From the NCBI GenBank assembly GCA_000091205.1, contig AP006499.2: a DNA stretch of 64,000 nucleotides, one strand, 5' to 3'. Below the pieces are notes generated by a model, which ran no database searches, was not told the origin of the DNA, and was given only the letters and a program-made list of their open reading frames with translations. Positions 1 to 55,500 of this stretch are shown in pieces. A program made the translations under genes and the position numbers. Source of the stretch: Cyanidioschyzon merolae (lineage: Eukaryota). How positions within the stretch are numbered: the first letter of the stretch is position 1; each line of letters starts with the position of its first letter.

Positions 1-3000
1 GATGGACAGCGTTCCTGGTTGTACCTCCGTGACCGCAAAGAACAGCGCCGAGGAGCGCAGCTCATACAAGTGATGAACTCCCGGTACCAGCGTTTCGATG
101 AAAAGCTGCATGCTGGGCATCGGTTGCCACGCCAGATTCGGCACAGTGAATGAAACGTCGTTCGTTGAGACGCGAAGCTCCGGCGCATGGCACGCACATC
201 GAATCTCGATGCACTCCTCGAAGTCTCGCACCAGGCGACAACTCACATAGAGATGGAACGTCCGCGTCACTACACTGCCGCAGAGCTGATCAGTCTCCGT
301 CGATTCCGGTTCGGGTCGCAAGTACAGAAATACTCGGCGAGAGGAGGCTTTTTCAACCCAGACGCTGGTGACCTTGCGCAGCGCCAGATTGCTGGTGCTG
401 AAGTGCAATTCGCTCCGAGATTGCGGATCCAGATCGTGGCGCAAGAGGAACTCCAGCGGCTGATCGCTCAAGTTTCGAATGCGTATCGACTTGTTTCGAT
501 AGACGTGGTGCAACATGACGGCACCATAGTCGATCTCTCGTGGACTGGTCTCGAAGATCGTCGACGCATCAGCTCGCTCGGCGACGACTTCCATGCGAAC
601 GCGCAAGAGCGCCAAGTTCGCTGGCGATTGGCGATCCGTGAATAACAAATACTCCTGGAAGAACCCCAAAGACTCCGGTTTCATGGTCAAGCAAATCGTC
701 TGGCTGGGTCGTGTCCGTTCGAGAATACCACCCATGCGATCGAGCGCGAACCATTCGGTCGATTCCGGACGCGCACGCCGCCAGTGCGTCGGGACGCGAT
801 GAATCTTGTACTCGAGAACGTGCTCAGCAGTTGATGCGCTCGCCTCGCTCTCAGACTCGGGATCTACCGATGTGGATACAGGCATGCATCGTTGCAGCGG
901 ACGCTGCACGATGATGATTGTCCGTTGAATCGCTTGGCTCCCGAGTGGTACAACACCAGCGTCGAGTTCGTAGAGGTGCTCACCAATGTCAGCACAGCCG
1001 TGGAGACCGAATGTGCGCGGGCCCCGCTGTGGTGCTGTTTCGTCTGCGTCCACGCAGGTGGTGGTGGTGGCGGCGGCGGCTGCGGCGAAGACGTCGCCAT
1101 GGGTCTCCGAATCATCGATCGCGGCCATTGGCTGCTCTGGTGCTGATAACGTATCCTTCGGATGCAAGCCGGGAGCAGTTGCAGCGTCGGAGGCCTCAGC
1201 GCTAAACGAAGCGCTGACCGGCTCTTGCTCGACACCGGCTTGCGCTGCTGCGCCAGTCGTGCACGAACTCGTCGCCAAAGTCGCAGCAGTCATGTCAGAC
1301 TGCGGACTCGTCGCCAATGGCAGGCGCTCGGGGTGCCCCACGCGAGGCGCCGCAGCTTGTCGCTCACCGACGACAACCGGTTCCAGTGCCGCGGCGTCCG
1401 TGCGGGATTCGTGCGGCTCCTCTGCCGCCGCCAGTGGCACCGGTGACTGCTGCACACGATCATCGCGCGTTTGCAAGTCGTCCCGATTGGACGCTTCTCG
1501 TGCCTCGGATTGTGACGAGGCTCGCGTGTCGCTCATCATCATCATCATCATCATCGACGTTGTCGGTGGCGGTGGCGGTGCATCGGAAGTATCCGCGGGC
1601 ACCATGACCTGTTGCATCGGCAGTGACCGCTTTCCTTGGTACACCGGGATGCGCTCCAGAGGGCCCGCCTCGGCGTCCTGTTTTCGTCGCAGAGCTAACT
1701 CAATCCAGGCGATCGGCTCCGAGTCGATGCCCAGATCCAGGCTTGGTGCTGCCGCAGCGGCCTCCGCGCCTCCGACCGAACAGCCCGCAACACGTTCATG
1801 CTCGGTTTCTTTGGGCGTCGCCACTACCGCCAGTTCGAACTTTTCACCACTGGCGAGCGTTAGCGAACGTAACGTCGCTGAACTGGCACGATCTTGGAGC
1901 ACAAGGTCTCGATAGGGCCCGGTAGGTACCACGCTTGTCTGCCAAGTGACCTGAACATCACCACGAGCAGCCTCGGGAATGCTGATCGCCAACGTGCCGT
2001 GGCCTTGCTCATTGAGCAGTACCGGACTCGATTCCTGTATCAAGCGAACGGAGAACTGACCAACAATGCGGAGTTCCAGGTGCTCTTGCGGTTGCCAGAC
2101 GTTCTCAATTGTCACCAGGAGCTCAAATGGACCAGCTCCCAGCGATAGCGCCGCTGGCCGCACCACGAGTGGTACCCAGACTTGCTCACCGGGCTCAAGT
2201 TGGCCTTCAAGGGCGCTCGCATCCGCTTCATGTAGCAACGACATGCGCGTCTGAGTCGGTACCAGTTGCGAGGTTGCAGCGGTCGCCGACGTCGATGCGG
2301 AGGCGCCCCTGCGATCCACGTCTGCCGAAGCGGCTTCGTGCGGGGGCACGCCCATACGCGTTCCGCTTGCGTATGCATCTCGAAGATCTTGCGCTACTGG
2401 TGGCGTCATGACGTCGGCACTGGCGCTGGGCGGCACGAGTGTCTCAGATTCGGCATCGGGATGAGGCGAGCTCCAAGTCGCCTGCGGCCGCCACGACGCC
2501 TCTAGCGAGGCTGCATGCCACGCATCAGGTGCGTCTTTGGAGACGTTGCCCCTAGTGCCATCAAAACGATGCTCAATGGCACTGGGCTCGAGGTGCGGCG
2601 TCTCCAGGGCCGGCCTCTGTTGCTCGTTTGGAACAGGGCTGGCTCCCGGGGGTCCCGCTTCGACCCCTGGCGGCAGTACCGAGAACGGCAAACGCCAACG
2701 TGCAGCGACTGCGCCCACGTTCCGAAGTAGAGCGTGCACCACCACGGGAGCGTTGCGCTGCGCGTACCCGATGGTGCCAATGTCGATCGTCGGGGTCACC
2801 AGGGCCATGCGCGCACAGCCGTATCGCAACGATACCGGAACGCTATCGAGATAGCGTCCGGCGAGCTGGGCCACAAGCAAGGCGCGTCGTTCGACGAGCG
2901 AGCCCTCGCGAAGCAGATCCCGTTCGCGTTCGTGGAGCAGCGACGGCACCAGCTGGTAGCGAAGCACCTCGGCCGGAACCGCTTCCCAGAACACGCCGTT

Positions 3001-6000
3001 GAGTCTCGGCTCTGTCAGATTCGGTAGCATCCGCGCTTCTTCTTCTTCTTCTTCTGCTGCTGCTGTTGCTGATGATGATGACAGCGGCGGCGAGTCCGAG
3101 CCACACGCAACATGCGGCCAGGGCCAGTGTTCAGGAAAGCCATCTACATACAGGCGAAATGAGACGCCTTGGGGTGTTGCTATGGTTGTTATTGCTGCTG
3201 CTGCTGCTGCTGCTGACGACGACGACGACGACGGCGAATCGTCGTTGATCCAGCGAATGTGCCAGTTGCCGGGACGCACTTGCCCCATCGTATCCGCTCG
3301 AAGCAGACAGGGCTCGTTAAGCTCCAGGTGCAGACGCGAGAGCCGACTATCCTGCTGCACTGCCGGCACCCGATGCACAAATACCAACTGCAAGTCGTAA
3401 GATCGACGCGAGTACGCCAGGTTCTCGAGGCGCACCCGTTGCTCGAGGAGCGCTGCTCGCCTGCAGTTACGCCACTCGAAGGTCAGCACATCTTGAGACT
3501 GGGGAGCGATGGTGATTTGCTGCTGAGCAAATACCAGAGATGGTTGTTGCTCGCAATCTTCGTCCTCGGGGGCGTCATCAGGCACGGCAGGATCAGGGCG
3601 TCGCTCATCAACAGTGACCTCCGAGCCAAGTTCCGAGCGCCCGAGATCGTCACCGGCAAAGGCGTGGAGCACGGAACGCTCTTCATATCGAAGTTGCAAT
3701 CTGAGCGATAATCCATTGCTGAGATTACGAATTTGTAGTCGGCCTCGAGCACCAAAGCGGAACCAGGCAGTCTGGAACAGATGCGATAGGCCCGGACGCC
3801 GTTCCCCCGATCCAGTGACTCCATCTGCGATACCGGAACTAATACTTTGCTTCCCGTTGAGGTCCACAAGTGCTTGCAGCGTTGCAGTCGGCCACAGTGC
3901 AAGCAACTCGGGCGCCGGTCTAATCGGGTGTCGTTGTCGCAGTCCACGCCGCTGCTCTGCTGTGAACGCATGAGTATCCTGCACGTAATGAATCGTCGCG
4001 ATCGCGTTCTCCTCTGTTGAGAACGCTTGCGTATCCTGCACATCATCAGTGGATTCCATCACACTGTCTGCAACTCGACCGCGTACACCTCTGTCGGCCT
4101 CTGTGACTGCAATCGGGCCCGTTACCCCGAGCACCAGCACCAGTGATCGCAAACACACTGGGTAGACGAATCCCGCCCGGGCCTTCAGTTTCACCGTAGC
4201 GATATCCACGAGCGCAGCTTGCGCACATCCAGCATCCAGGGACGCTTCGCTCTGGACTGGATCAGGGCGCCAGGCTCTCAGCAGGAGCCCCGCAACGAGC
4301 TCCCGAACAACCCCTGCATATAACTCAAGAATCGGAATGCGTGGTGCGAGACCCACGTGCACGGTAACCGTCGCGCCCGGTGCAACGCGGACTGCTCGCG
4401 GGAACGGTGTCTGCCGCATCGCGTCTGTGAAAAGCAGGATCTGTTTCGCCAGGTTGCTCCGAACCTGTAACATTAACGGTTCATCGCTTCTCGAGACAAT
4501 CGTGAGGCTCCGCACCGCACACACACCACCCTGCTCGGGGTCGAGAGCGAGATCACCCCAATCCCACACGAGTACGGTCGAAGAGGCTCGTAGCGGCTCC
4601 GATGAAGGCGCCGCTTCCCTCTGAACACCAATCGATGATAGCTCGACGGCACTGGATTCCAACTGAGGCAGGTACAGCGCCCGACGAGGCAGCACATGAC
4701 CCTGTACCCGAACACGCACCGTCTCAACTGGTGCAGTCGAGGCTGGCGAGGTGCCAACCCAGCCACCACCACCACCACCACCACTACCACCACTGTTCCC
4801 GCCGGAGCGTCCAGTGGCGTGCACGAGGCGACTCGCCGGAGCGCCCACCAAAGCCTCGGTCGCTGGTTGAAGCCAGGCGGTTACCACCAGCGTTCTCGAT
4901 AGTGTACCCATGCGGTCGGGGCGAAAACTGAGGCGCACCTGGGCAACACCGTGCACGTCGACGGTACCGCGCATGGGACTCCAGAGCAGCGTGGCAGGAA
5001 GCGCCACCTGCGTATCCTCCAGCACCGAGAACGCAACCTTTCGATCAGAAACGTTCTGGATCGTCAGGCGGCTGGTCACCGTCTGACCGAGCGACACTTT
5101 GCCAAACGCGATCACCAGCGGTGATATCTGAATGAGTCGCGAGCTCCCTGTGCGCTCCACGCGTCTTGCGGTACTGGGCAGAACCGGTACCGTTTCCGCA
5201 AATGCAGGCCAACGTCCGGCGCTATCTGGTGACCCATTCCAGTCACTGGACACGGTGTCGTTGCATGCGCTCTCGTGCGCGGAGCTTCTCGTCGCCATCA
5301 CGTCTTGTTCAGGGACGACGTTTGACGGAGCGTCGTCGCTCGTTGCCGTCGGTGGTACCGCAGGGTCCGAATCCCAGACCTCCATTGAACAGCAGATACA
5401 TTGCTGCTCATCCCGATTACGTTGTTCAAACACACGCAGAGATACTTGTCGACGACCTCGTACGCCTGCAACCGACGTCAGCGACACAGCCAGACGAGCG
5501 ACTTGACCAGGAGCAAGCGTAACGACCAAGCGCCCGGCATGAAGCGCGGTTGCTGCCCTGCGTGAAGCAGTAGGTGCCGCTCGAGGTCGCATCCCCGAGA
5601 CACACGTCGATGCCTCGCGGACATTCTCCGGTGGCATCGAATGCGCTTCTGGAGCGTCCAGCTCGGTGACCGACTCACCTTGCGTCAGCGTTCTTGTCGA
5701 TGAGTCCGCATCCTGCAACTGATGCGTTCGCTGCTGTGCGATTGCTGCACGGAGGCGCTCCACTTTTTCCGTCCGGCCCTTTCTTTCGGCGATACGGAGT
5801 TTCTGTTCCAGTGCCTCGATCGCTGCGTTGGTATCAAGGGACGTCTGCATCGATCCGGGTATAGCACCAGCACCAGCGAATAGCGCTTGTTCCTGCTCAT
5901 GCGCCTGCGGCAGCATGGAAGCAGCAACAGATTCGGCTAGTGCCGCTTCGGCGACGCGTCCTCCACAGGCGCTGCGTTCGTTATCCGGGGTCTCGTGCGC

Positions 6001-9000
6001 TCGCGATTCCCCGTCGTACACTGACGAGTGAACCACAGACTCGGAAGGCGTTGCTGTTTCGGTTGCTTCCGTTCCTGGTCCGGGCAAGAACGCCGGCCGA
6101 GACTCACCAGGCTGCACGCGAATCGACATCGAGGACTCGAGAGCGTCCACCGCAAGCCACACCGTGGCTGTCGTCCGTTGATCAGCAGCGTCCTGCTCGA
6201 TCACGAAGACACGCCGACGATCCGAGCAGTTCTGGAGCTGAAAGGAACGCCGTATGCCAGCACCGGGCGCTACTGCACACGATACGCTCCCAAAGTCGAG
6301 CTGCAGCGGTCGCACGACAAAATGGGTACGGCGGTGTACGAGTGCCTTCATGGTTACCGGATGGGCATCGCTGGGATCCAGCAGATTGACAATCCAGACA
6401 CACTCCTCGAAGGCACCATGAAACGAAGGCCGAAATACGAAAGGAACTTCCTTGGCACTGAACGGCCGCAGAACTCCGCGCCGATCAGACCCAAAGTGCA
6501 AATAACTGCTATCCACAGAACCAGACTTGCGTACAGCGTAGAAAGCCGGCATCTCCGATACGTTCTGCAGAAGCAGCGTCTTAGATCGTTGCTCACCTGC
6601 GACGATACCCCCAAAGTTGATATGCGGCTGGGCAACTTCCATTCGAGAGATGCAAACCCGACCTCGCAGCACCAGCTCCCGTGGCGGCAAAGACGACGCA
6701 TGCAGCCGTGTCGGTGTCAGCGGGAGACGACTTTGATCATAGTCCACGAGGTGCAGATAGAGGCGCTCCTCAAAAGGACGCAGTTTGGTGCGCAGTCGGC
6801 GGTCGGCGGCGTCGAACTGGATAACCACATAGAGGGTTGCCTCGGCGTTGGGCTCGATCTCCAGCTGCTGCTGTTGTATCCGTCGGAGCAGGCCTGCATC
6901 ACACGCCTGGACCAGCGCTTGTGCGGGACGCAGCGACTCGCGAATAAAGTCTGCTTCTGCTTCGGCAGTCGAAAAGAAGGATGGAATGGCGGGCGGCATC
7001 CGCATCAGCTGCGCGAAAATGTCAGCGGCACGTAGACTCACTGGTGAGGTTTCGTTTCTACCCAGTTCGTTTGAGTCTGAGGTCTCCGACAGCGTCTCCT
7101 CATCTGAATCACTGGAAGCCTGTGATCGACGACGCCGAACTGTCTGCCGCAAACGGACGCTATGTCGATACCGACGACGATGATGACGAGACGGCTGCAG
7201 AAGCTGACTCGCGCCCGTTCGCGAGGCATCACTGGAGTGCTCACCCGCCGACGCATTTCGTACTGGTGTGCAGAGGCGCGTTCCGGTTGTCGTCGAATCA
7301 GCGGCTGCCGCTGTACCTGGAAGAGCCATCGCTTCCTCAGTGTGCTCAGTAGACTGTGTTTCGACGCCCGTGTTACGCCACTGGGTCCGTGCTCGAGAAG
7401 CAGGTGCCGCTGCTTCCGTCGCTTCCGTAGCCGTGCATGCCTCGTTGCCAGACGTGCGAGCCGAGCACTGCAGCTGCACACCGTCCGCTACGACATGCGC
7501 TGCAGGGGCAGGTGCCGCTGCCTCTGCATCCGCCAAGGCAGCGTGCGGTAGACAAGCTTCCGTTGGTAACGTCGCTGGTTGGCGTTGCTGTTCCGAAGCG
7601 TCCTTTTCGGAGATTGACGGGTGCGGTTGAGCGCGCTCGAACCGGGGATCCGCGAGCAGCTCCACATGCGGCCGTGCCGGGCAGGTAAAACCCAGGACAA
7701 GGCGCTTGTCGGTCAGGTTCCGCACCTGAAAAGCGCGAATGTACGCGTGACCAGCCACCACGTTCCCGTAATCAAGCTCATTCACCTGGGTGGAACGCTC
7801 GGTAGCAAGTCGGTAGAAGAGCGCGTGGTAGAGCACGCGAAAGCGGTCGACACAGTTCGCGCGTATCACCACGACATGTTCATCGCGAGGATTCCGCAAA
7901 TTCAGTATCGTCAACTGTTTGCTATAGTCTGGATTCACACGATGCGGTGTAAAGTCGATCCGGAGATCATAGATCTGGCGAGGGCCAATGATAGGCTCAA
8001 GCGATGCCACCCGGAGCGACGTCGAGGAGAAGCGCACCGAGAGAAAGGCTGGGAGGTCGGCAAGGTTCACCACCTGCACAGACGTGGTCACTGTGGATTC
8101 CACGTAACAGTCGCCCAGGTGAATTTCCGTCGGATGCACCCGCACGAGTGACTCACTGACTCGCGCTCGTCCGTAGAGTATTTTGCGCTGGGCGAGTACC
8201 TCTCCGTCGTCGAGAGCGTCGCGTCCCGAAAGCGAACGAAAAGGCACAACCTCTTCACCAGAAGTTGCCGACGACGTGTTTGCGGCTGGCATCCAGGCAG
8301 CTGCACCAGCGGGTACGGTGCTGGGCGCGCAGGCGCTCCCGTCCAAGAGGTCGGACCTGAGCTCAGCGCCATTACCCTGCTGGTGCTGTTGTTGTTCGTA
8401 CATGGTGCGTTCGCTGGCGCTTAGCGCGTGCAGCGACGCCCGTTCTGGAGCGCTCTGGAGGCCGGCATCTGGCGCGGATACCGCACTGTCGATTAGCGGC
8501 TCTTGCTGCTCGTCCCCGAGCGGAAAGCGACTCGCTGCAACTCGCGAGGCAGCGCTCCCAGTGCTCGTTCCGCAGACGCGATCGGATCCCAGCAAGCCGG
8601 TGTCATCGGTGTACCCCGCTGGTCCAGGGAAGACATGCTCGAGCACCTCGCTCGGTGAACCAGGAGTTGTCGCTTCTGATTCCATCGCAACTCGCTGCGC
8701 TCTGGTACGCTCTGGTACCTCGGACGTCCTGAGCATTACCCAGAACACCAGAGGGAAGCGCCTCTCCACAAAGCGTCCATCTACTGCGGCGATCACTGCC
8801 TGCGAGCGCAAAGGTGGTTGATAAACAATCCGAATGGGACGTGCCTCCTTTGCTGGGACCTCGACCGGTGCAACAGGTACAATGGACCAGCGGGCGGCTA
8901 GCTCTTGGTCCATGGATATCAGAATTGTAGCGTCAGTTGCACAGTTCTGCACAACAAGGTCGCGCGCAACTGTCGAGCCAGCGTACACGTCACCAAAGTC

Positions 9001-12494: not shown

Positions 12495-13029
12495 ACGAAG
12501 GAAAAGCTATGGAAGAATTTGAGGTGTTCTCGGTGAAGCTGGTGCTTTCGGATGACCAATGCATGAGTGTGTGTGTGTTTGTTTTCGTAGAATGGTGCTC
12601 GTATGAGGGCAAGAGCAGCACCATGAACACGTTCCAGATGCAAGGCACGAACTCGGATCGCATGGACAATGCATCTGTATACTGCAGCATGATCATCTCG
12701 AAGTGGTAATCGAACGATGTTGACACGGTTGCAAACGCTAGAACGGCAACATCTCCTTTGCTTTTCTCGACGCACGTGCAGCGCCATGATGCCCATTGCG
12801 TATCTGACACCGCTTCCTCTGCTGCTTACTGTGCATCGTTTTCCGCACCATATGGACGACGCCGCTCGTAAGGCATTCGCGAGCGCCCGCGTAACTTGGA
12901 CGAGGGAATGCGTCCACCAAGCGCAAGCGCTCCCTACGACTCTGTTTAAATGCCGTTGCTTGGAATAACCGCACATGCCGACGAGGAATCGCGGCACTAG
13001 AGGCCCGTGTCGAAGCACGGTCTCGGTTT

Positions 13030-13985
13030 GCGTGCTCAATAGAAACGCAACAAACGTGCCTTTCTTTTTTTGTGCTGGCTTTCCAGAACGCGATCAGGTC
13101 TGTGCCGCTGTTCCCGGGAAAGCGCACATCCCATCTTTTCCTGGTATGAGAAACAGGAGTTTCGTGGTGATGCGAAACGCAACAAACGTGCCTTTCTTTT
13201 TTTGTGCTGGCTTTCCAGAACGCGATCAGGTCTGTGCCGCTGTTCCCGGGAAAGCACACATCCCATCTTTTCCTGGTATGAGAAACAAGAGTTTCGTGGT
13301 GATGCGAAACGCAACAAACGTGCCTTTCTTTTTTTGTGCTGGCTTTCCAGAACGCGATCAGGTCTGTGCCGCTGTTCCCGGGAAAGCACACATCCCATCT
13401 TTTCCTGGTATGAGAAACAGGAGTTTCGTGGTGATGCGAAACGCAACGAACATGCCTTTCTTTTTTTGTGCTGGCTTTCCAGAACGCGATCAGGTCTGTG
13501 CCGCTGTGCCCGGGAAAGCGCACATCCCATCGTTTCCTGGTATGAGAAACAGGAGTTTCGTGGTGATGCGAAACGCAACAAACATGCCTTTCTTTTTTCG
13601 CACTGGCTTTCCAGAACGCGATCAGGTCTGTGCCGCTGTTCCCGGGAAAGCACACATCCCATCGTTTCCTGGTATGAGAAACAGGAGTTTCGTGGTGATG
13701 CGAAACGCAACAAACATGCCTTTCTTTTTTTTGTGCTGGCTTTCCAGAACGCGATCAGGTCTGTGCAGCTGTTCCCGGGAAAGCGCACATCCCATCGTTT
13801 CCTGGTATGAGAAACAGGAGTTTCGTGGTGATGCGAAACGCAACAAACGTGCCTTTCTTTTTTCGCACTGGCTTTCCAGAACGCGATCAGGTCTGTGCCG
13901 CTGTTCCCGGGAAAGCACACATCCCATCTTTTCCTGGTATGAGAAACAGGAGTTTCGTGGTGATGCGAAACGCAACGGCCGCAAT
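13030..13985. repeat. 132-bp tandem satellite, ~7 copies
   Basis: Marker 'gaaacgcaacaaacgtgcctttc' recurs at 13042, 13174, 13306, 13438, 13570, 13702, 13835 and 13967, giving a period of 132 (=44 codons). Four overlapping long ORFs on both strands (12738-13655, 12975-14015, 13036-13920, 13070-13810) are periodicity artefacts. Confidence 0.9.
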
Positions 13986-15660
13986 ACGGCCTCTACCTCC
14001 ACCCGAACCAGATGAGAACGGGGTATTGCATTGCTCGCGCTGCTCCTGCCTTGAGATTTCTTACCGCCCGCTTCGTGGATATACAGCCTCTACATTTGCA
14101 ATCCATGACAAAGCACTTTCGTATACATATGGAGTTGTAGGAGTCTCGGTCATGTTTTCGGAGTGCTTGTGTCGATCCGTTGCCGCTCGGGATTCGTCGT
14201 GCCATCGGATTGGAGCGGATTCACGACGACCTCGAACACGACTTTGTAAAATCGTCGATGACGTCATCAGAGTCGGACGTGAAAAAATCCACGCTTTTCG
14301 ATTCCCTCAGTGCTCTATACGCAAACGACACACGCTTCAACTCGATCGTTCTGATTCAGGGCAATTCGTGGGCACGGCAATTCGTTCTGATGAATCGATG
14401 AGGAAAGAAAACTCGATGTCGTGCTTTGACGACTGGGTCACGAGCATATACCGAATGTTCATTGGGCTTCTCACGTCAATTCATCGATATCGTTCGAAAG
14501 AGAAATCCTCTTCTCTTTGTGGTCAACGATGAAGCGGCATTCTACAGCAGCAGCGTGAGACGTCTCAGAAGCTGCTCCCCGAGGCTTCCGTATCCTCTGT
14601 TTGCCTGGGTACGGGTCTTGGACGCAAACCAGAGTCACTACAGCGATCGATAGCTTTGGAGCGTGCGTCACCGCCTGGAACGACGAGCGTGCAGATGGGA
14701 CGAAATGTCTCGACTAGTTCCGCAACCTGGGTTTTCCATCGGCTGCCTGTTTCATCGATGAGCTAAATCGCTTTCTCCAATTCCGCAATCGAAACGAATC
14801 GCGCGCACTTGCATATGCAGCAGACAGCAAAGTCGCGGCGAGCATCGCTCAGAAGAAGCCCGTGATCTTCGGGTACAGCAGCGAGCGCGGAAACAGAACA
14901 GGGCATCCATCGGTGCCGTCAGCAACTTCCAAGGACGCGTGTGTCGAGCCGTGAAGCACGGGGTCACGCGCCTCAAGTCGGTGCTCGGAGAACAAAGTGT
15001 TGCGGGTGTGTATAGGAGCATCTGAGCGGCATCAAGCGTTACCGCTGCGAAGCGCGCTCAGAGACTCTAGACATAGATGATGAAATGAACAAGCGACATG
15101 CAGACTGCGACTTTTGCCTGTATATGTATCTTATCGTGAGCAACAACCGATAACTGCGAGCATGGGGCTTTCACGTTGCCATCAACGTCCTTCCACTGCT
15201 GGCAATGTAGCTGGAGGAACGGGAAAGACTTTCCTGTATTACGCCGGAGATAAAAGAACGGAAAGAAGCAAATCGACGAAAAACCGCGGAAAACCCTGTT
15301 CTAATTCCAGTCGCAGGAGACCCGAAACATAGTCCGTACGCCCAAGTTAGTCGACTTGACCCGTTCCATTTTATGCGAATATGGGTGTACACCAGCCTGA
15401 GCGCCCCAGAACAACAACAACAACAACGGCTTTTCTGCTGCGCCGATTTTCCAAAAGCATCCGGACTCTGTGGAACGATTTTTCGTGGAAACATGCGGAT
15501 ACCAGCATGAGCGAACATGCATGGACGTGCTGCTCACGGACTTGTACACACTGTGCTCGTCCTCGCTTCCCAGGATTCGCGTCACGATGCTTCCGCCTGT
15601 CACTGGCTGCGTAGTGCCCCACGTTACGCCCTGACGCTTACACGTCGCAGCTGCAGCAGG

Positions 15661-20679: not shown

Positions 20680-22189
20680 CAAGGTTGTTGCGAAACGCTC
20701 ACTGGCCGGGCGCTTCCTGTTCAGGCGGTTCAATGGTGAGCGGGGCAGTCGTCGCCAGGGCAGTGGCGATAGATTTCGAACCCCAATGCAAACGCATAGG
20801 GCGTGTATCTCAGTGAAATGCTATAGAAACCTGTATATTCCAAAGAAAAATCTGCGAAGCGTCGGAGTGATAAAGTGCATGCCGGGGACAAGCGCTGATC
20901 CGACGTACCCGTGGCATGCTCGGAATCGAGTCACGACTTGGTGATACCTTCCTGCGCACATCAGCGCACTTTTGCTTCACGGACGTACGCGAAGTACTGA
21001 TGAACGATGGAACAACATATGTTTCTACCGATTGCGCAGGAAAAATCGTAAACGATATATATATGGCGCTGCTATATTCATGGATTGCTGGACGGATCGT
21101 ACCAGTGCCTCGTTCGCGCGAGAATCGCATGACTTTACACCTCGCGACTGATTTTTACATCGCCAGACTTTCTGTTTTCAGCACCATGTCCATAAAGAGT
21201 ACTACACGAGTACCTCGCGAGCCCGCTCGACACAAGGCTGTTGGACGCTCCCGATGCACGAGACATTTCCGGATGTTGGTTGAGGCATACAGGTCTCCGT
21301 GCAGAATGCCTCTGCCTATGTTTGCCTGCGGAATCGCATCATTGCAAGACGCTCATTTTCGATTGCCTCGCCAGTTGGCGTTCGATCAGCTTACCGTTCA
21401 CCATCTCGTGCATGCGACTATTCACTACGCTCTTCTTCTGTGCACGGTTCAGCGTACAGCCATGCTTGTGCAGCTTGCGTATCGTCCTGAATATATCGAT
21501 GGAAATTGTCCGGCATGGATTGGTGCACTCTTTGGACGCTCTCGTTGAATGAGCAGGTGCGCATCCAGTTTGACAAGTGCTGTATTGGATGCACGGAACG
21601 TTCAGGATAAGCATGCGAAGAAGCGTGCTTCACTCATCGAAGGACTTTCGAATACCTGATTTGAACAAGTAAGGCCGTTTCATCCAATTACCATGAAACA
21701 TATCAGTTCCTTTCACCTCTTTTTCCAACCCACAAGATGCATTCCTTTTGTTGAACACATCCCAGATAAACACCCAAAAAAGTCCTAATGGTCTAGGCGT
21801 TCTAGAATTCACCACCCTAGTTATACCGACAATCACCATTTGCGTGTCCGTGCATCTTCGACGAGTCGCTCGCGGTATCGACCGCCCCATCCGCACCGCA
21901 GTTGCGCTGCAGCGTGCAACAGCGCATGCGATCCTGCATCAGCAGCTAGCCGCGAACCTGCATGGCACGCGGCATCCACGCCGCCGAGTCTCCAAAGCGT
22001 ACCAGGAACACGAAATCCCAATCCCGAAACCCGAACGGTCTGGTACGAAGAAAGCATCAATGCAGCTCCGCATGTCCATACCCATCGCACACATGAAGAA
22101 GCACACCAGGTACTGGAATGTAGCCTCTAGCAGAGCATCCCGGTATTGGGTGATCGTTCCCGCCCACGTTATCCCGGGATCTCGCTTCA

Positions 22190-22520
22190 ACGATGATTGT
22201 ACAAGCGAATCGCCCTCTTTAGAGCCCCTAAAGGTGGACGCTGTACAGATCGTCCTCTCCAGCGCACATGAAGGCTGCCGCTGTACAGATCGCCCTCTTC
22301 AGAGCCCCTAAAGGTGGACGCTGTACAGATCGTCCTCTCCAGCGCACATGAAGGCTGCCGCTGTACAGATCGCCCTCTTCAGAGCCCCTAAAGGTGGACG
22401 CTGTACAGATCGTCCTCTCCAGCGCACATGAAGGCTGCCGCTGTATAGATCGTCCTCTTCAGAGCCCCTAAAGGTGGACGCTGTACAGATCGTCCTCTCC
22501 AGCGCACATGAAGGCGGACA
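22190..22520. repeat. 80-bp tandem minisatellite x4 (each unit made of two ~40-bp sub-repeats)
   Basis: 'agcgcacatgaaggc' recurs at 22261, 22341, 22421 and 22501; 'ctgtacagatcg(t/c)cctct' sub-repeat. It lies ~130 bp upstream of the Pol X ATG. Confidence 0.85.
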
Positions 22521-22647
22521 TCGACGCGCATGCACCGAGGCGATCTCTCGCCAAATATCTCTGAGGGAAAACGAGAGGGCTCTCTACTGTACCTCAGGTG
22601 CGCGTGCCGCTACCAAGTCCGATTGAGTGGAGAAAGGCTCACTTGGA

Positions 22648-26861: not shown

Positions 26862-29120
26862 GCTCTACCAAAGCCGCAGCCTCCACCAATAACGTACAGA
26901 ATGAAAACGTAGTCCCAGAAACGTTCGAGCGCCTCTGGAACCCCGACTTGTCCACAAGGCGCTGCTCGTGCTCGTGGCGTGCACCCCAGTGGTGCAGCGT
27001 CCGGGCACCACGCAGGCAACGCTACGTGTCCATGCACGCATCGATCGCACGTATCGATCGATTGATCGATCGATGCGCAGCGGCGGCTAGAGGCGCTCAG
27101 CGGCCGCCGCTGCCGCCTGTGCATCCGGTCCGGTGCCGGGGTGAGCACGACGCGCCTGCTCGAGCGCGAAGCGGCAGCGGCTCTTCGCATGCAGTGCCTG
27201 TTCGTTGTAGCGAGGTTTGTTCTGGGTCGGCGTTGGGTCATTCGACGAAATGCTCTCCGACGCACGGGCGCTGGTCGTTGGCGATACATGAATACGAGCT
27301 GGATGGAGAAAGGAATAGCGGCATCGGGCTGAGCGCTGGGAAGCGGCGCGTCGATGCGTGCGTGCGCTGCTGCGCTCTTTTCCCTGATCTGCGCGGGCGA
27401 TGTGTGTCTCTGGCGTTTCCGCATCGATGCAGCAGGGATCCGAATAGTGATCTGAGCGTCGCTTTCTCGGTTATCCTATGACTGCGAAAAAGTGTCGAGC
27501 GCGGAATTTGCGGTCGACTGCAGCATCGACGGAGCGGATACGACGCCCGCTCCCTGGCGACGTCGATTTGGGGCGCTGGCAACCGCGGTGGCCAGCGGGG
27601 CTGTTCACACCCAGCGGTATGCGAGCGCTGAGGTGTCGCGCAGAACGGTTGACCGTCTCCATGGCGACGCTACTGAGACACCATGCGCAATAGCCGGTGT
27701 GACATGAAGTGCCGGATGCGATCACGCGGCTTTGCTGGACGATTTCGGATGCTTCTCGTAATCGAGCGGCATGCTTTCCGAATCACTGAGAAAGCGCGCT
27801 TCCGGGGCTTCGAACACGCATCGCGCTCCGCTGATGCATCTGGAGAACCCGGCACTGTGGTCAGCTCGAGGTCGGAAAATGTGCTGCTCGGCTTCGCCGG
27901 CTGGGAAACGGAATCGCATCGACACGAAGTGTGAAGAAGACGCTGTCTGCGTTCTCTCGTTGCAAGACAGCTGAGCGTTGTGTTCAGCGGTGCCCTGGTG
28001 CCCAGCAGCGCAACCGCGTCCATCTATGCGACGTTTCACCAATGACAGCCACGTGCATGAGCACTCGCACCTGACACATCGTTAACGTTCTGAAAACAGC
28101 ACCGATGCGACCGCCCCCGTCTGCTTCTGGCCAAGGAGCGCTCCCGACGTACAGTTAAGGAGGTCGCGAACGGTGTGTGCGGCACGCGCCGGTTGCGTCA
28201 CACCGGTACGTTCCGAGCGAGCGGTTCCCCCACACGCAGCCGCAGAACGCTAAACCATCCTCTGGACCCCAAAACGCTGGTGCAAAGAGCCGCCCCCAGC
28301 CAAGTACCCTGTCTATGTGGAAGGCATTTCGCACTGGTGCATGCGCCTCGCCCACCTGTGCATCGCGTGGGCGCGCGGCGAGCATTGCGGCGAGCGCAAA
28401 TGCAGGATACCGGGAGATAATTGCAACATGGGCGACGCCCAGACGCAGCTTAACTGCCCCTAGTCCCAGAATACAATGCGTTGCGGACGATTTGCGCAGC
28501 TCACGTAGCAGTACCTGCCACTGCAGAGTCGAACGGGTGACGAGCCTGGCAGACTGCTCCGGCTCGCGGGACCTTTCGCGTGGAAGGAAAACTTTCTAGA
28601 ATACGAAAAGCTTTTCCCCTTTCAAAGTATATCACAGAAGGGGAAAGCAATACATATACATGCCGGTGAATCCAGAGTCTATGTGCGTTAATCTAAATAG
28701 CGCGCGCTAGATACGCGCATCACGAGATCTGGCTGGCACGAGATACGATGCGCATGTCGCCGTTGAAGAGAAAAGCGATTCCGATCAGAAGCGTGTTCTA
28801 CCGGAACAAGTTGGATTTCCGTTGGAGTTTTACAAAAGAGCAGTTTTTTCATTTCATTTGGTCTTCAACCCTCAAACAAGTCTAGTAAAGTGTTTTTTCG
28901 CAGTATATGACAGAAGCGTTCGAAGAGCGTTGTTTTTCAAAAAAACTAAAAAATGAAAGCTATGAAAAAGCAAGTCGACGATCCTGGAGGCTCAGTGTGG
29001 CTGGCTGCCAGAAAAAAAAAACAATAAACATTACCGAGTCCAGAAGAAAAGGAAGAGAAAAAGAACCGAAAGGGGGAGGCTCTACGTCGAAGGCCGCAAG
29101 AAAGACGACAGTACGACGAG

Positions 29121-29879
29121 ATGGTGGTGAAAACCTTTCTTCTTGGACATACCAAGGATCCCTGCAGGGAAAAGTTGCGAGACGCTGTCGAAAAACGTGT
29201 CGACTCTTACTTCAGGAATATTGTGAAGGCGTCGTCAGGACTGATGCATTTGGCGAGGGAGATGTATCGCGACGTGACGCACATGGAAACGGTCAAGATT
29301 CCGGACAAGTTCTTCGACAAGACCTTTATTCGACACCTCATGCTTGGTACAGAGGAAGCGCGGAGGGAAAATGAGCGGGTGCACGTCCTCCACGGAAAAC
29401 ACTCCTTTTACAGCTTTAATGGTACTCGATACAAGGGTGACCGGGATATGTACGACTATGGGGCGATGAAGTACCTCACGAACCTGAAGAACCATCTGAT
29501 CGTGAACCTCGAACGTTTCATGATACGCGCCGTAGTTGCACTCTACCCGGACCTGTCTCGCCAAGGAATATGGGCGATTATCAATGGCATCACGAAAGAT
29601 CGCAGGCGTGAAGACGAGGTCGAATTTGTCGAGAAGAAGGAGTCAAACGAGAGCACGAATGAGGATTCTGTAATCCGTGCGGCTATGAAAGAGCATCGTG
29701 CGGTACTGGGGTTGGCGAATTCAGCAGAAAAGATATCAGCGTTGAAAAAAGATGAGGGAAGATCCTATCGCCTCATTCTGGGATATTTTGTGTTCCTGGA
29801 CCGAGAACTGGGACGCGAGGCAGAGATGAAACTGGGTGAGGAAAAAATGAAGCGTGGGAGAGACGGAAGGCTTTCCTAA
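29121..29879 (+). CDS. Fanzor/TnpB-like protein, N-terminal segment (copy A)
   Basis: 252-aa ORF (ATG confirmed), 96 % identical to copy-B ORF 53486-54244. It lies upstream of and co-oriented with the RuvC segments. Confidence 0.45.
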   Translation: MVVKTFLLGHTKDPCREKLRDAVEKRVDSYFRNIVKASSGLMHLAREMYRDVTHMETVKIPDKFFDKTFIRHLMLGTEEARRENERVHVLHGKHSFYSFNGTRYKGDRDMYDYGAMKYLTNLKNHLIVNLERFMIRAVVALYPDLSRQGIWAIINGITKDRRREDEVEFVEKKESNESTNEDSVIRAAMKEHRAVLGLANSAEKISALKKDEGRSYRLILGYFVFLDRELGREAEMKLGEEKMKRGRDGRLS

Positions 29880-30091
29880 TGGGGAAGCGCTTCAACGGCG
29901 TTCCAATGTGCAACATCAGTTCACATTTTGTGACTATCGACTCCAGAATCCTTTACGGCATCATGTAGGAGATCAGTCCGGAGTTCAGTGTCAGCAGGGA
30001 GGAGTTCTCCGCTGAGAAGCGGGAGACGCACTGGAAGAACATCTTCAATTTCAAACTTCTCAAAGTCAGCAAACAAAAGGTATTCACTGGA

Positions 30092-30658
30092 ATGATCGAA
30101 ACCGATGGAGTAGCCACGTGTGTACACTATCGGCGCTTGAAGGCAGATCGTCCAGTTCTGTGTTCAATATTGTCCGTAACGAAGCATGAAGATGAGAAGG
30201 AGGCGTATCCTGCGACGCAGAAAGTGCAGAATAACGACTTTGTCGTTGGCGCGGACCCCGGAACCACAAATATCGCAACCATCGCAGCACCCAAGCGTGC
30301 GGAAGATGGTACTGACGGCAACCTACGTCGGAAAGACGTGCGTCTTTTGAGGCTCTCGAGAGCAAGATACTATCGAGAATCGGGAATCATGAATGCAAGG
30401 AAGAAAATTGAGGCATGGAATGCAGGAATGAAAGAGCACCTGGAAGCCTTGAGTGAGATGACGAGCCGCGGAGCGGACTTTGAAGCTTTTCGGAAATTCA
30501 TGGAAGTTCGTGTTGCTCATTGGGATGCGCTGTGGGAAGAGTATACAAATCCCCGGTGCGCTCGTCTGCGAATGAATCTGTATTGTGGGAAGCGGCGCGC
30601 GTTCGCGAATTTTTTAATGAGTGCCTTGAAGGAGAATGAAAGTCAGGGCTCGTGGTAG
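30092..30658 (+). CDS. Fanzor/TnpB-like protein, RuvC-I segment (copy A)
   Basis: ...[19 protein letters not shown]... matches the TnpB RuvC-I catalytic Asp motif (cf. IGIDLGxxxxA). 188 aa, 96 % identical to copy-B ORF 52707-53273. Confidence 0.6.
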
Positions 30659-31033
30659 CGTACGGAGCAGGGCGCCGGAGGATACAAAAAGGGTGTACAC
30701 CAGCTCCAACGGCAAGAACGTACATGGAGTGTGCACGGCGTTTTGTTACAATACCTGTAGATGAGTTTCGAACATCGTATACACACCATGAGCTGGGTTG
30801 TACACTTCAGAGAGTGGAGATGGAAAAGTGCCACCGGAGCCCTGAAGATATAAAAAAGTATGGACGGCTGACGGAAGAGCAAATGGAAAGGACGTCGAAA
30901 GTTCGTGGACTCCTTGCATTAGTAAGTACAACCAATGATGGAAAGAAGCGTATGGAGTTTGTGAATCGTGACTTTGATGCCGCTATCAATATCAGGAAAT
31001 GTGCGGTGATGGAGCATAGACCTCCAGAGTGGA
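30640..31033 (+). CDS. Fanzor/TnpB-like protein, zinc-finger-like plus RuvC-III segment (copy A), in -1 frame relative to the preceding segment
   Basis: ...VTIPVDEFRTSYTHHELGC...CHRS...MEFVNRDFDAAINIRKCAVME matches the TnpB C-terminal pattern (V..V.E.YTS.xC ... DRDxNAAxNI). The frame opens at 30640 and overlaps the end of the RuvC-I ORF by ~16 nt. The homologous copy-B ORF stops ~13 codons after NAAINI; copy A lacks that stop and reads through to 31395, which is artefactual. Confidence 0.55.
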
Positions 31034-31241
31034 CAAGAGTGAATTTTGTTGGACAACCTCTCAAAGTCGAACTATATGAGAAAAAGTTGGAAGCAGTATT
31101 CGGTAGACTGTTCAAAAAAACTGGGAGGCATCTGCACGTCAGTTGGCGACGTCTCGTCCAAGGCGCGGTTGCCGCCACTACTGTACACGCCCGACGTCGT
31201 TCGACTTTCGAGCGGCGTTTGGCCGGTGTCACCTCTAATCC

Positions 31242-51862: not shown

Positions 51863-52338
51863 CAAACCTGACAGAGCCCACCCTCTATACGTACAACAGA
51901 TAAATCTAGTCCGTTCACGGACGAGAAGACCGTTCCGGCTACGCTTTCCGTTTCGCTGCAGACGTCTCCGTGCGCGCTTTTCAGAGTTGTCACAATCGCC
52001 AGCTCACTGCGTCGATAAATACCACGAACACAAACCACAGTGTGACCAGGAGCCAGTCAGAAACCAGACAAGCGCTGTGGAGTCCAAGAAAAACGAAGTT
52101 CCCACAACGCTCGTCGAGGCCTCACCTAGAACACCCCTGAAGACAAACGTCTTTGAAAAGGAGAACGCTGTCGCCGGCGGTGTACAGCAGTGGCGGCAAA
52201 CGGGTCCTAGACAAATCGTCCCCAACTGATGGGCAGACACCTCGCCGTCTTTCTCGACCGGTCACCCACTACTGGTTTCAACTTTTTCTCATATAGTTCC
52301 ACTTTGGAAGATTGTCCAATTAAGTTTTCTCTTGTCAG

Positions 52339-52722
52339 TTATGGAAGTCTTCTTTCCATCACCGCACATCTGCTTATATTGATAGCGGCATTAAAGTCAC
52401 GGTTCACGAATTCCATACGTTTCTTCCCGTTGACTGTACTTACTAATGCAAGGGGTCCACGAACTTTCGACATCCTTTCCATTTGCTCTTCCGTCAGCGG
52501 TCCATACTTTTTTATACCTTCAGGGCTCCGGTGGCACTTTTCCATCTCCACTCTCTGCAGTGTACAACCCAGCTCATGGTGTGTATACGATGTTCGAAAC
52601 TCATCTACAGGTATTGTAACAAAACGCCGTGCACACTCCATGTACGTTCTTGCCGTTGGAGCTGGTGTACACCCTTTTTGTATCCTCCGGCGCCCTGCTC
52701 CGTACGCTACCACGAGCCCTGA
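52339..52722 (-). CDS. Fanzor/TnpB-like zinc-finger-like/RuvC-III segment (copy B), with native-looking stop 13 codons after NAAINI
   Basis: ...EFVNRDFNAAINISRCAVMERRLP*. It shows the same -1 frame offset relative to the RuvC-I segment as in copy A. Confidence 0.55.
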   Translation of the reverse strand, partial: SGLVVAYGAGRRRIQKGCTPAPTARTYMECARRFVTIPVDEFRTSYTHHELGCTLQRVEMEKCHRSPEGIKKYGPLTEEQMERMSKVRGPLALVSTVNGKKRMEFVNRDFNAAINISRCAVMERRLP

Positions 52723-53273
52723 CTTTCATTCTCCTTCAAGGCACTCATTAAAAAATTCGCGAACGCGCGCCGCTTCCCACAATACAGATTCATTCGCAGA
52801 CGAGCGCACCGGGGATTTGTATACTCTTCCCACAGCGCATCCCAATGAGCAACACGAACTTCCATGAATTTCCGAAAAGCTTCCAAGTCCGCTCCGCGGC
52901 TCGTCACCTCACTCAAAGCTTCCAGGTGATCCTTCATTCCTGCATTCCATGCCTCAATTTTCTTCCTTGCATTCATGATTCCCGATTCTCGATAGTATCT
53001 TGCTCTCGAGAGCCTCAAAAGACGCATGTCTTTCCGACGTAAGTTGCCGTCAGTACCATCTTCCGCACGCTTGGGTGCTGCGATGGTTGCGATATTTGTG
53101 TTTCCGGGGTCCGCGCCAACGACAAAGTCGTTATTCTGCACTTTCTGCGTCGCAGGATACGCCTCCTTCTCATCTTCATGCTTCGTTACGGACAATATTG
53201 AAGACGGCACTGGACGATCTGCCTTCAAGCGCCGATAGTGTACACACGTGGCTACTCCATCGGTTTCGATCAT
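52707..53273 (-). CDS. Fanzor/TnpB-like RuvC-I segment (copy B)
   Basis: 188 aa with 7 substitutions relative to copy A. The Ruv[20 protein letters not shown] motif is retained. Confidence 0.6.
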
Positions 53274-53485
53274 TCCAGTGAATACCTTTTGTTTGCTGAC
53301 TTTGAGAAGTTTGAAATTGAAGATGTTCTTCCAGTGCGTCTCCCGCTTATCAGCGGAGAACTCCTCCCTGCTGACACTGAACTCCGGACTGATCTCCTAC
53401 ATGATGCCGTAAAGGATTCTGGAGTCGATAGTCACAAAATGTGACCTGATGTTGCACATTGGAACGCCGTTGAAGCGCTTCCCCA

Positions 53486-54244
53486 TTAGGAAAGCCTTCC
53501 GTCTCTCCCACGCTTCATTTTTTCCTCACCCAGTTTCATCTCTGCCTCGCGTCCCAGTTCTCGGTCCAGGAACACAAAATATCGCAGAATGAGGCGATAG
53601 GATCTTCCCTCATCTTTTTTCAACGCTGATATCTTTTCTGCTGAATTCGCCAACCCCAGTGCCGCACGATGCTCTTTCATAGCCGCACGGATTACAGAAT
53701 CCTCATTCGTGCTCTCATTTGACTCCTTCTTCTCGACAAATTCGACCTCATCTTCACGCTTGCGATCTTTCGTGATGCCATTGATAATCGCCCATATTCC
53801 TTTACGAGACAGGTCCGGGTAGAGTGCAACTACGGCGCGTATCATGAAACGTTCGAGGTTCACGATCAGATGGTTCTTCAGGTTCGTGAGGTACTTCATC
53901 GCCCCATAGTCGTACATATCCCGGTCACCCTTGTATCGAGTACCATTAAAGCTGTAAAAGGAGTGTTTTTCGTGGAGGACGTGCACCCGCTCATTTTCCC
54001 TCCGCGCTTCCTCTGTACCAAGCATCAGGTATCGAATAAAGGTCTTGTCGAAGAACTTGTCCGGAATCTTGACCGTTTCCATTTGCGTCACGTCGCGATA
54101 CGTCTCCCTCGCCAAATGCATCAGTCCTGACGACGCCTTCACAATATTCCTGAAGTAAGAGTCGACACGTTTTTCGACAGCGTCTCGCAACTTTTCCCTG
54201 CAGGGATCCTTGATATGTCCAAGAAGAAAGGCTTTCACCACCAT
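53486..54244 (-). CDS. Fanzor/TnpB-like N-terminal segment (copy B)
   Basis: 252 aa with 10 substitutions relative to copy A. Confidence 0.45.
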   Translation of the reverse strand: MVVKAFLLGHIKDPCREKLRDAVEKRVDSYFRNIVKASSGLMHLARETYRDVTQMETVKIPDKFFDKTFIRYLMLGTEEARRENERVHVLHEKHSFYSFNGTRYKGDRDMYDYGAMKYLTNLKNHLIVNLERFMIRAVVALYPDLSRKGIWAIINGITKDRKREDEVEFVEKKESNESTNEDSVIRAAMKEHRAALGLANSAEKISALKKDEGRSYRLILRYFVFLDRELGREAEMKLGEEKMKRGRDGRLS

Positions 54245-55269
54245 CTCGTCGTACTGTCGTCTTTCTTGCGGCCTTCGACGTAGAGCCTCCCCCTTTCGGT
54301 TCTTTTTCTCTTCCTTTTCTTCTGGACTCGGTAATGTTTATTGTTTTTTTTTCTGGCAGCCAGCCACACTGAGCCTCCAGGATCGTCGACTTGCTTTTTC
54401 ATAGCCTTCATTTTTTAGTTTTTTTGAAAAAGAACGCTCTTTGAACGCTTCTGTCATATACTGCGAAAAAACACTTTACTAGACTTGTTTGAGGTTTGAG
54501 GCACAAATGAAATGAAAAACTGCTTTTTTGTGAAACTCCAACGGAAATCCAACTTGTTCCGGTAGTACACGCTTCTGATCAGAATCGCTTTTCTCTTCAA
54601 CGGCGACATGCGCGTCTTGTCAGTTGACTGCCCGATCTCCCTGATGCGCTCACCGAGCGGGATTCTTTTTTCATTGACAAGACGTTTACTTAGGCCAGCG
54701 TTCTCCGACTGTGCGCTTTTTCTTTTCTTTCTTTTTTTATTTGGTTTTCTGCGCGCGTTGAAGTATCCATCAAACACCCTACTCCCAAGTCACATTACCT
54801 AAACTTCTTCTCGGATTTTCTGGTCGTTTCATGCGTTCTATCACACACCTAATGCCTGCCCTAGTCATCCGCAATAGCGTCTTTACCTTCGGTACAGTTG
54901 CATCACGGAGACAGAACGGCGTTGCCGTACCACAGAGGGCGTCCGTTCGAACTGGGGTACGGATCATACGTGGATCGCGGCGAACGGGGTTGTGACCGGG
55001 TTCTTTGTGCGTCGCTCGAATGTGCGTTTCCTCCAATGCCCTGTAGCTGCTGGTTCAGAAGCATTCGGTTCTGGTCTTTGAATTCAGCTCCGACTTTGGA
55101 TTACATGAGAGAGCGTCAATTTTCGTGTAGGTCATACCTATTTTCAGCTTTGGTGCGGACGCGTGCACGAACGTCACGCTTTCCAACGACTACATGGAGC
55201 CCCGAGCCGTTGGGAACGATCCCAACACGACGAGCTCCGCCGCTCGAGAATACATCGGAAACGATGGTG

Positions 55270-55500
55270 CACTGCATCCACATGGAACACGAGCCGCAGT
55301 CGAAGCGTGTCCCTGCTCTGTGCCCAAGAGTGCACTGATCTAGGGCAACTCCAATATTCAATGTACCGTTTTCAAATGCACTGCATCCACATGGAACACG
55401 AGCCGCAGTCGAAGCGTGTCCCTGCTCTGTGCCCAAGAGTGCACTGATCTAGGGCAACTCCAATATTCAATGTACCGTTTTCAAATGCACTGCAAGCGCC
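55270..55500. repeat. 109-bp tandem duplication (2.1 copies)
   Basis: 'cactgcatccacatggaacacgagccgcagtcgaagcgtgtccctgctctgtgcccaagagtgcactgatctagggcaactccaatattcaatgtaccgttttcaaatg' appears at 55270 and 55379, with a partial third start at 55488. It lies ~330 bp upstream of the lipoyl synthase ATG. Confidence 0.85.

Follow-up and report, generated by a model that had tools for sequence, protein, structure and literature searches.

Two decayed copies of the Fanzor1 transposon CMe-1A in Cyanidioschyzon merolae, with common lesions probably spread by ectopic gene conversion

Main finding

A Fanzor-like gene that lies in three reading frames at two inverted loci of Cyanidioschyzon merolae was analyzed by comparison with its published transposon family and with homologs from metagenomes. 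Both loci are very probably decayed copies of the Fanzor1 transposon CMe-1A, i.e. pseudogenes whose ORF is broken by four common lesions. The three-frame gene is an ordinary pseudogene pair, and no evidence was obtained for introns or programmed frameshifting. The lesions common to the two copies are likely to have been acquired through ectopic gene conversion of the ~2.06 kb interior between older insertions.

Genomic setting and identity of the two copies

The window, meaning the whole stretch of 64,000 nucleotides that was analyzed, was identified as part of chromosome 17 of C. merolae 10D. Five host ORFs of the window match annotated C. merolae 10D proteins exactly, the named matches including poly(A) polymerase (BAM82262), CENP-E (BAM82265) and CMQ434C. 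A repeat search and blastn detected an inverted pair of copies, 28715-31191 on the plus strand and 54649-52176 on the minus strand, with 95.4% identity over 2480 nt. In the core of this alignment (29013-30935 of copy A) the two copies are 98% identical and are separated by zero indels. The complete elements have the following extents:

28386..31217, plus strand: copy A of the Fanzor1 transposon CMe-1A (blastn to the consensus; right end from the family alignment and the consensus end)
52148..54950, minus strand: copy B of CMe-1A (blastn to the consensus)

One Fanzor1 family, CMe-1A, has been described in C. merolae (Bao & Jurka 2013, Mobile DNA 4:12; PMC3627910), with ~150 copies that are each ~80% identical to the consensus, no terminal inverted repeats (TIRs) and only some intact members. 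The same authors argued for purifying selection on the family, and their supplement provides a 3169-bp CMe-1A consensus that encodes a single-exon protein of 734 aa (PMC3627910). Using blastn against this consensus, 28386-31188 of copy A was found to correspond to consensus positions 333-3137 at 84.4% identity; before consensus position 333, copy A is 5'-truncated or diverged. The CENP-E ATG (31242) follows 24 nt downstream of the right end of copy A. For copy B, 54637-52148 corresponds to consensus 671-3169 (85.5% identity) and 54778-54950 to consensus 84-254 (78% identity). As copy B matches only these two parts, the region between them (consensus ~255-670) is an internal deletion. Over the ORF, identity to the CMe-1A consensus is 86.8%. 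Judged by these alignments, the window copies are members of an already published family.

Several other repeats are present in the window. Eight tandem units of 132 nt occupy 12896-14120 inside overlapping long ORFs on both strands, and seven units of 40 nt are found at 22169-22555. An exact 109-nt duplication at 55268-55485 is located ~300 nt past the 5' end of copy B, and an inverted pair of 120 nt (14808-14927 and 60266-60385, 72% complementary) may represent fragments of another dispersed repeat.

For the family comparison, 79 related loci were taken from hot-spring metagenomes. The family members in these loci are mostly broken into several frames and few keep ORFs of at least 750 codons. 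The pattern used for retrieval misses the 'FTGMIETDG' variant that copies A and B have, so that further members of the dead lineage could have been missed; a protein search with ORF2 for such members returned only fragments with at most 85% identity. One metagenome locus (L052) contains two CMe-1A-like copies in inverted orientation, at 426-2540 on the minus strand and 3609-6107 on the plus strand. This arrangement resembles the pair in the window at a much smaller spacing.

A Fanzor1 nuclease gene distributed over three frames

The preliminary description had reported a three-frame Fanzor-like ORF in both copies, and six-frame translation together with stop maps verified this arrangement in frames 0, 2 and 1. 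The ATG-initiated ORF in frame 0 covers 29121-29879 and is terminated by the TAA at 29877, frame 2 is open from 29840 and ends with the TAG at 30656-30658, and frame 1 is open after the TGA at 30637-30639. The reported overlap at 30640-30658 and its -1 frame relation proved to be exact in the stop maps.

Homology of the encoded protein became visible only at the level of the family. Pfam searches with the separate ORFs and with the conceptually repaired protein yielded no match, phmmer of the repaired protein against the PDB yielded none, a profile of nine sequences produced only a chance match in the PDB, and precomputed Pfam assignments were limited to a weak DUF8286 match. A word-seeded search found 56 relatives, and 2,644 representative clusters (E <= 1e-3), mostly from metagenomes, were retrieved when a small profile was run in a full HMMER search. 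A homolog of 752 aa without interruption (P0001; 67% identity, 96% coverage) is encoded on a 49-kb eukaryotic metagenome contig. A profile of 40 sequences finally matched three solved Fanzor1 structures in the PDB, 9cf0 from Parasitella parasitica (E = 2.4e-24), 8gkh from Spizellomyces punctatus (E = 3e-16) and 9cer from Guillardia theta (E = 2.5e-11), which upholds the earlier label 'Fanzor-like'.

In the 40-member alignment the D-E-D residues of the motifs DPG, DEFRT and NRD are invariant or nearly so. They correspond to D484, E656 and D725 in P0001 numbering, and the codons for all three are present in the window:

30254..30256, plus strand: RuvC-I catalytic Asp codon, in the GADPG motif (30248-30262)
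30760..30762, plus strand: RuvC-II catalytic Glu codon, in the VDEFRT motif (30757-30774)
30970..30972, plus strand: RuvC-III catalytic Asp codon, in the NRDFDAA motif (30964-30984)

The third segment had also been labeled 'Zn', a label that does not apply: the conserved CxxC...CxxC pairs of a zinc ribbon (TNB insert, between RuvC-II and RuvC-III) are absent from the consensus of the 40 homologs. The window sequence 'TSYTHHELGC...EKCHRS...LLALVSTT' stands where 8gkh and 9cf0 have CPRC/CPKC...C..C. From these alignments, the Fanzor1 clade of 2,644 clusters appears to have lost the zinc-ribbon cysteines. This large clade is essentially unannotated, with no Pfam match above threshold, the weak DUF8286 match and sporadic weak matches to Cas12f1-like_TNB. 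Comparison with the relatives shows that the ancestral gene consisted of one uninterrupted ORF for a predicted TnpB-like RuvC nuclease with a D-E-D triad.

A unit of ~24 aa (72 nt) directly N-terminal of the RuvC-I Asp (window 30170-30250) is variable in copy number. The window copies and the published consensus each have one unit, P0001 has about five and a second homolog (P0008) still more; a metagenome locus (L001, ~7150-7500) and a further protein (P0006) belong to the same observation. Because of this variation, blastn alignments often break at ~30254.

Lesions that split the ORF

Lesions were called by aligning both copies to the CMe-1A consensus ORF of 734 codons. The ancestral start codon, four lesions common to both copies and one nonsense codon of copy B are listed here:

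28962..28964, plus strand: ancestral Fanzor1 ATG, frame 0, aligned to consensus codon 1
29025..29027, plus strand: common nonsense TAA at codon 21 (consensus AAA; copy B: 54340-54338)
29842..29847, plus strand: A-tract with a 1-nt deletion at codon 293, frame 0 to frame 2 (copy B: 53523-53518)
29966..29968, plus strand: common nonsense TAG at codon 335 (consensus AAG; copy B: 53399-53397)
30646..30647, plus strand: common 1-nt deletion at codon 564 (CAG[A]GGCTC), frame 2 to frame 1 (copy B: 52719-52718)
52341..52343, minus strand: nonsense TAA private to copy B at codon 691 (alignment to the consensus ORF)

It is the four common lesions, two 1-nt deletions and two nonsense codons, that place the conserved protein segments in frames 0, 2 and 1. 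An in-frame 6-nt deletion at 30618 is also common to A and B. At codon 17 each copy has a private insertion, of 3 nt in copy A and of 2 nt in copy B (54352-54351), the latter shifting the frame. The natural stop codon is lost in copy A, and copy B also contains a private in-frame 3-nt deletion at codon 660. A continuous nuclease-coding ORF is absent in both copies, with further lesions in B.

The extent of the lesions in the family differs from one lesion to the next. Among 78 aligned sequences the TAG at 29966 is confined to A and B (0/76 others), and 64 sequences have AAG or AGG at this position. The base missing at 30647 in A and B is present in 22/22 other aligned copies. At 29842, the length of the A-tract segment is 18 nt in 41/70 aligned sequences and 15-20 nt in the rest, and A and B share a length of 17 nt with 11 others; this length polymorphism across the family marks the segment as a homopolymer indel hotspot.

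The sequence 29880-30091 had been regarded as a gap of ~210 bp between the first two segments. It is instead coding in frame 2 and contains conserved residues, interrupted only by the TAG at 29966-29968. A comparison with intact homologs had been suggested as a check, and both P0001 (752 aa) and the CMe-1 consensus (734 codons) read without interruption across every junction, as expected if the window copies are decayed. Three options had been raised earlier (introns, a programmed frameshift, an ancestral pseudogene), with a preference for frameshifting or for an inactive yet still copied element. Of these, the pseudogene is supported by the intact ORFs in relatives, and the programmed -1 frameshift is contradicted by the non-conserved deletions that underlie the shifts.

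The pattern of substitutions was used to compare selection in the pair and in the family. Members of the family with long ORFs show dN/dS values of 0.33-0.46. Between A and B, dN/dS is 0.79 and indistinguishable from neutral (p = 0.54), a value based on 34 core substitutions and of little power; these substitutions are distributed over codon positions as 8/13/13. Purifying selection has acted on the family but left no sign in A and B in this low-power test.

Recoding, splicing and assembly errors

A full-length Fanzor1 could in principle be produced from these loci by programmed recoding, which would combine two -1 frameshifts (or transcriptional slippage on the A6 run) with two stop read-throughs. 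The D-E-D residues and most conserved motifs remain intact across the three frames, and an A6 run is located at the first junction. However, the preliminary description had proposed a search for a slippery heptamer at 30640-30658, and no X XXY YYZ heptamer occurs in phase either there or at 29840-29879, the AAAAAAT at 29842 being out of phase. The shifts are non-conserved 1-nt deletions when compared with the consensus and with intact homologs, four independent events would be needed, the substitutions between A and B look neutral and copy B contains extra private frameshift and nonsense lesions. Recoding is extremely unlikely on this evidence and was rejected. Spliceosomal introns at 29880-30091 and 30640-30658 that join the segments have a negligible probability; apart from the appearance of separate ATG-initiated ORFs, nothing speaks for them. 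A true intron had been envisaged in 29880-30091, but this region encodes conserved residues and is co-linear with the intact homologs and with the single-exon consensus, which leaves no room for one. As both copies are co-linear with the consensus ORF except for indels of 1, 3 and 6 nt, there is nothing to splice and introns were rejected. Introns are also rare in this red alga, whose genome was reportedly finished by Matsuzaki and colleagues in 2004 at 16.5 Mb and is said to contain only ~27 of them.

Errors of sequencing or assembly in the reference could in principle mimic frameshifts, and one of the lesions does fall in a homopolymer A-tract. Yet two of the lesions are substitutions and the lesion bases are identical in both copies. 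Two independently assembled ortholog contigs (L084 and L086) match at all lesions, on which ground this vanishingly improbable explanation was rejected. An alternative genetic code and RNA editing were likewise rejected; the neighboring genes read normally and the locus is nuclear in an organism with the standard code. We infer that no protein is made from either copy by recoding or splicing.

Mosaic identity and the origin of the common lesions

Sequence identity between A and B is not uniform along the element. It amounts to 87.7% over 28715-28870, 98.25% over 28871-30930 and 77% over 30931-31191. The central segment can be described as follows:

28871..30930, plus strand: homogenised tract between A and B, likely a gene-conversion tract (98.25% identity), which holds all four common lesions

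In the 260 nt at the 3' side, A and B are each closer (84-86%) to copies of other genomes than to their partner. At the 5' side, A retains consensus 333-670, which is missing in B, and B retains consensus 84-254, which is missing in A. An additional comparison was possible with an environmental strain (L084), in which the locus orthologous by position to copy A has flanks that are ~0.2% diverged from the window and an element core that is 1.9% diverged. Counts of private sites (18, 16 and 18) place this ortholog equally far from A and from B, and its changes occur in clusters and revert to family-consensus states. For copy B, exact look-ups by neighboring genes or ORF2 found no ortholog, and its flank was found in none of the fetched metagenome loci.

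The mosaic identity, the 5' structures that are not derivable from each other and the equidistance of the environmental ortholog make gene conversion the likeliest source of the common lesions. According to this model, two older and structurally different insertions, 21 kb apart and in inverted orientation, would have had ~2.06 kb of their interior homogenised by ectopic (non-allelic) gene conversion. All four lesions would have passed from one of the loci to its partner in a single tract of ~2.06 kb, and no transposition of a whole dead element would be involved. The earlier reading, in which the lesions predate the duplication and the element was mobilised in trans, is not the best one, since the ends differ and only the lesion-bearing 2.06 kb are 98.25% identical. 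Recurrent ectopic gene conversion among family members offers the simplest account of the mosaic.

Two further observations concern the environmental locus. Positions 1-4000 of L084 were aligned with window positions 27242-31241, where the CMe-1A insertion is 1.9-3.4% diverged and the flanking CENP-E gene ~0.2%, a difference of about tenfold. Within the stretch 28736-28863, more than 25% of the sites differ between L084 and the window, as if this part had been replaced from another family copy.

A different history is conceivable in which the lesions are older and a dead master element was duplicated or moved in trans, its ends being altered later by independent deletions and by conversion from third copies. 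In favor of it, A, B and the environmental ortholog of A agree at all four lesions, and Fanzor is not the transposase, so that a non-coding copy might move with the help of another enzyme (PMC3627910). Duplication of the whole element followed by overwriting of the ends of one copy would also give a mosaic, and such a course still involves conversion. Against it, neither copy has a 5' structure that could derive from that of its partner, the 3' 260 nt have diverged like those of random family members, A and B not being nearest neighbors there, and neither the TAG nor the 30647 deletion occurs in any other copy among ~75. Taken together, this history appears rather unlikely. How conversion might be initiated is a separate matter. 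In a speculative scenario to which we assign a low probability, the unusually high exchange among CMe-1A copies would be an active process: an intact Fanzor1 would act with omega-RNAs from many loci, dead ones included, and its cuts at or near the element ends would induce homology-directed repair from paralogs. If true, this would constitute a TnpB-like 'homing / retention' activity in a eukaryote, in which dead copies would be maintained because they serve in conversion and supply guide RNA.

The 3' end and a candidate omega-RNA

The right part of the element was inspected for a structured RNA and one region was delimited:

31092..31217, plus strand: conserved 3'-terminal region, candidate omega-RNA scaffold, overlapping the last consensus-ORF codons and reaching the right end

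In minimum free energy predictions the terminal ~130 nt of most copies form a long closing stem (CAGTAGTGG / CCACTACTG) around hairpins, followed by a terminal hairpin. When this structure was transferred to the aligned copies, 81% of cells paired, versus 37-58% with the partners slid; covariation is weak. Shuffle controls for the transferred structure (33/500 and 4/500) were weak as well. For 32 sequences of the 3' end, the consensus structure from RNAalifold was essentially empty, as the alignment is disrupted by divergent outliers and indels, and Rfam returned only a chance-level match for the 3' region. In copies A and B the 5' arm and the first hairpin of the region are partly degenerate. 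The predicted fold is compatible with an omega-RNA scaffold without being proof of one. If an omega-RNA were made from copy A, its guide would correspond to the 5' leader of CENP-E.

Implications

The outcome matters mainly for annotation, where the two loci should be labeled as Fanzor1 (CMe-1A) pseudogenes and not as split genes or recoding candidates. Detection of the Fanzor1 clade found here requires a family profile, as Pfam and single-sequence PDB searches miss it. The reading preferred above would further mean that paralogous copies in a compact, intron-poor genome exchange sequence by gene conversion, in which case common lesions are an unreliable guide to the age or the mode of a duplication.

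Comparison with known systems

The closest known system is the published CMe-1A element itself, which is the same element in the same organism, the window copies being 84-85% identical to its consensus. Unlike intact CMe-1A, the window copies contain the four common and several private lesions. They also differ from the full element in the 5' truncation of A, the internal 5' deletion of B and the homogenised interiors of both. Bacterial TnpB / IS200-IS605 omega-RNA systems likewise carry a RuvC nuclease gene on the 3' side of the transposon, and a further likeness is the conserved, foldable terminal region that overlaps the end of the ORF and abuts the right end. In contrast to these systems, the CMe-1A copies have no TnpA partner, and the RNA is a prediction with weak covariation. 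In comparison with the solved Fanzor1 proteins (9cf0, 8gkh, 9cer), the window copies are unable to encode a protein, and the Cyanidioschyzon family is too distant for single-sequence detection and lacks the CxxC...CxxC cysteines that these proteins have between RuvC-II and RuvC-III. Profile homology to the same three proteins nevertheless extends from the WED/REC region through RuvC-I (DPG) and includes RuvC-II (DEFRT / DEYKT) and RuvC-III (NRD).
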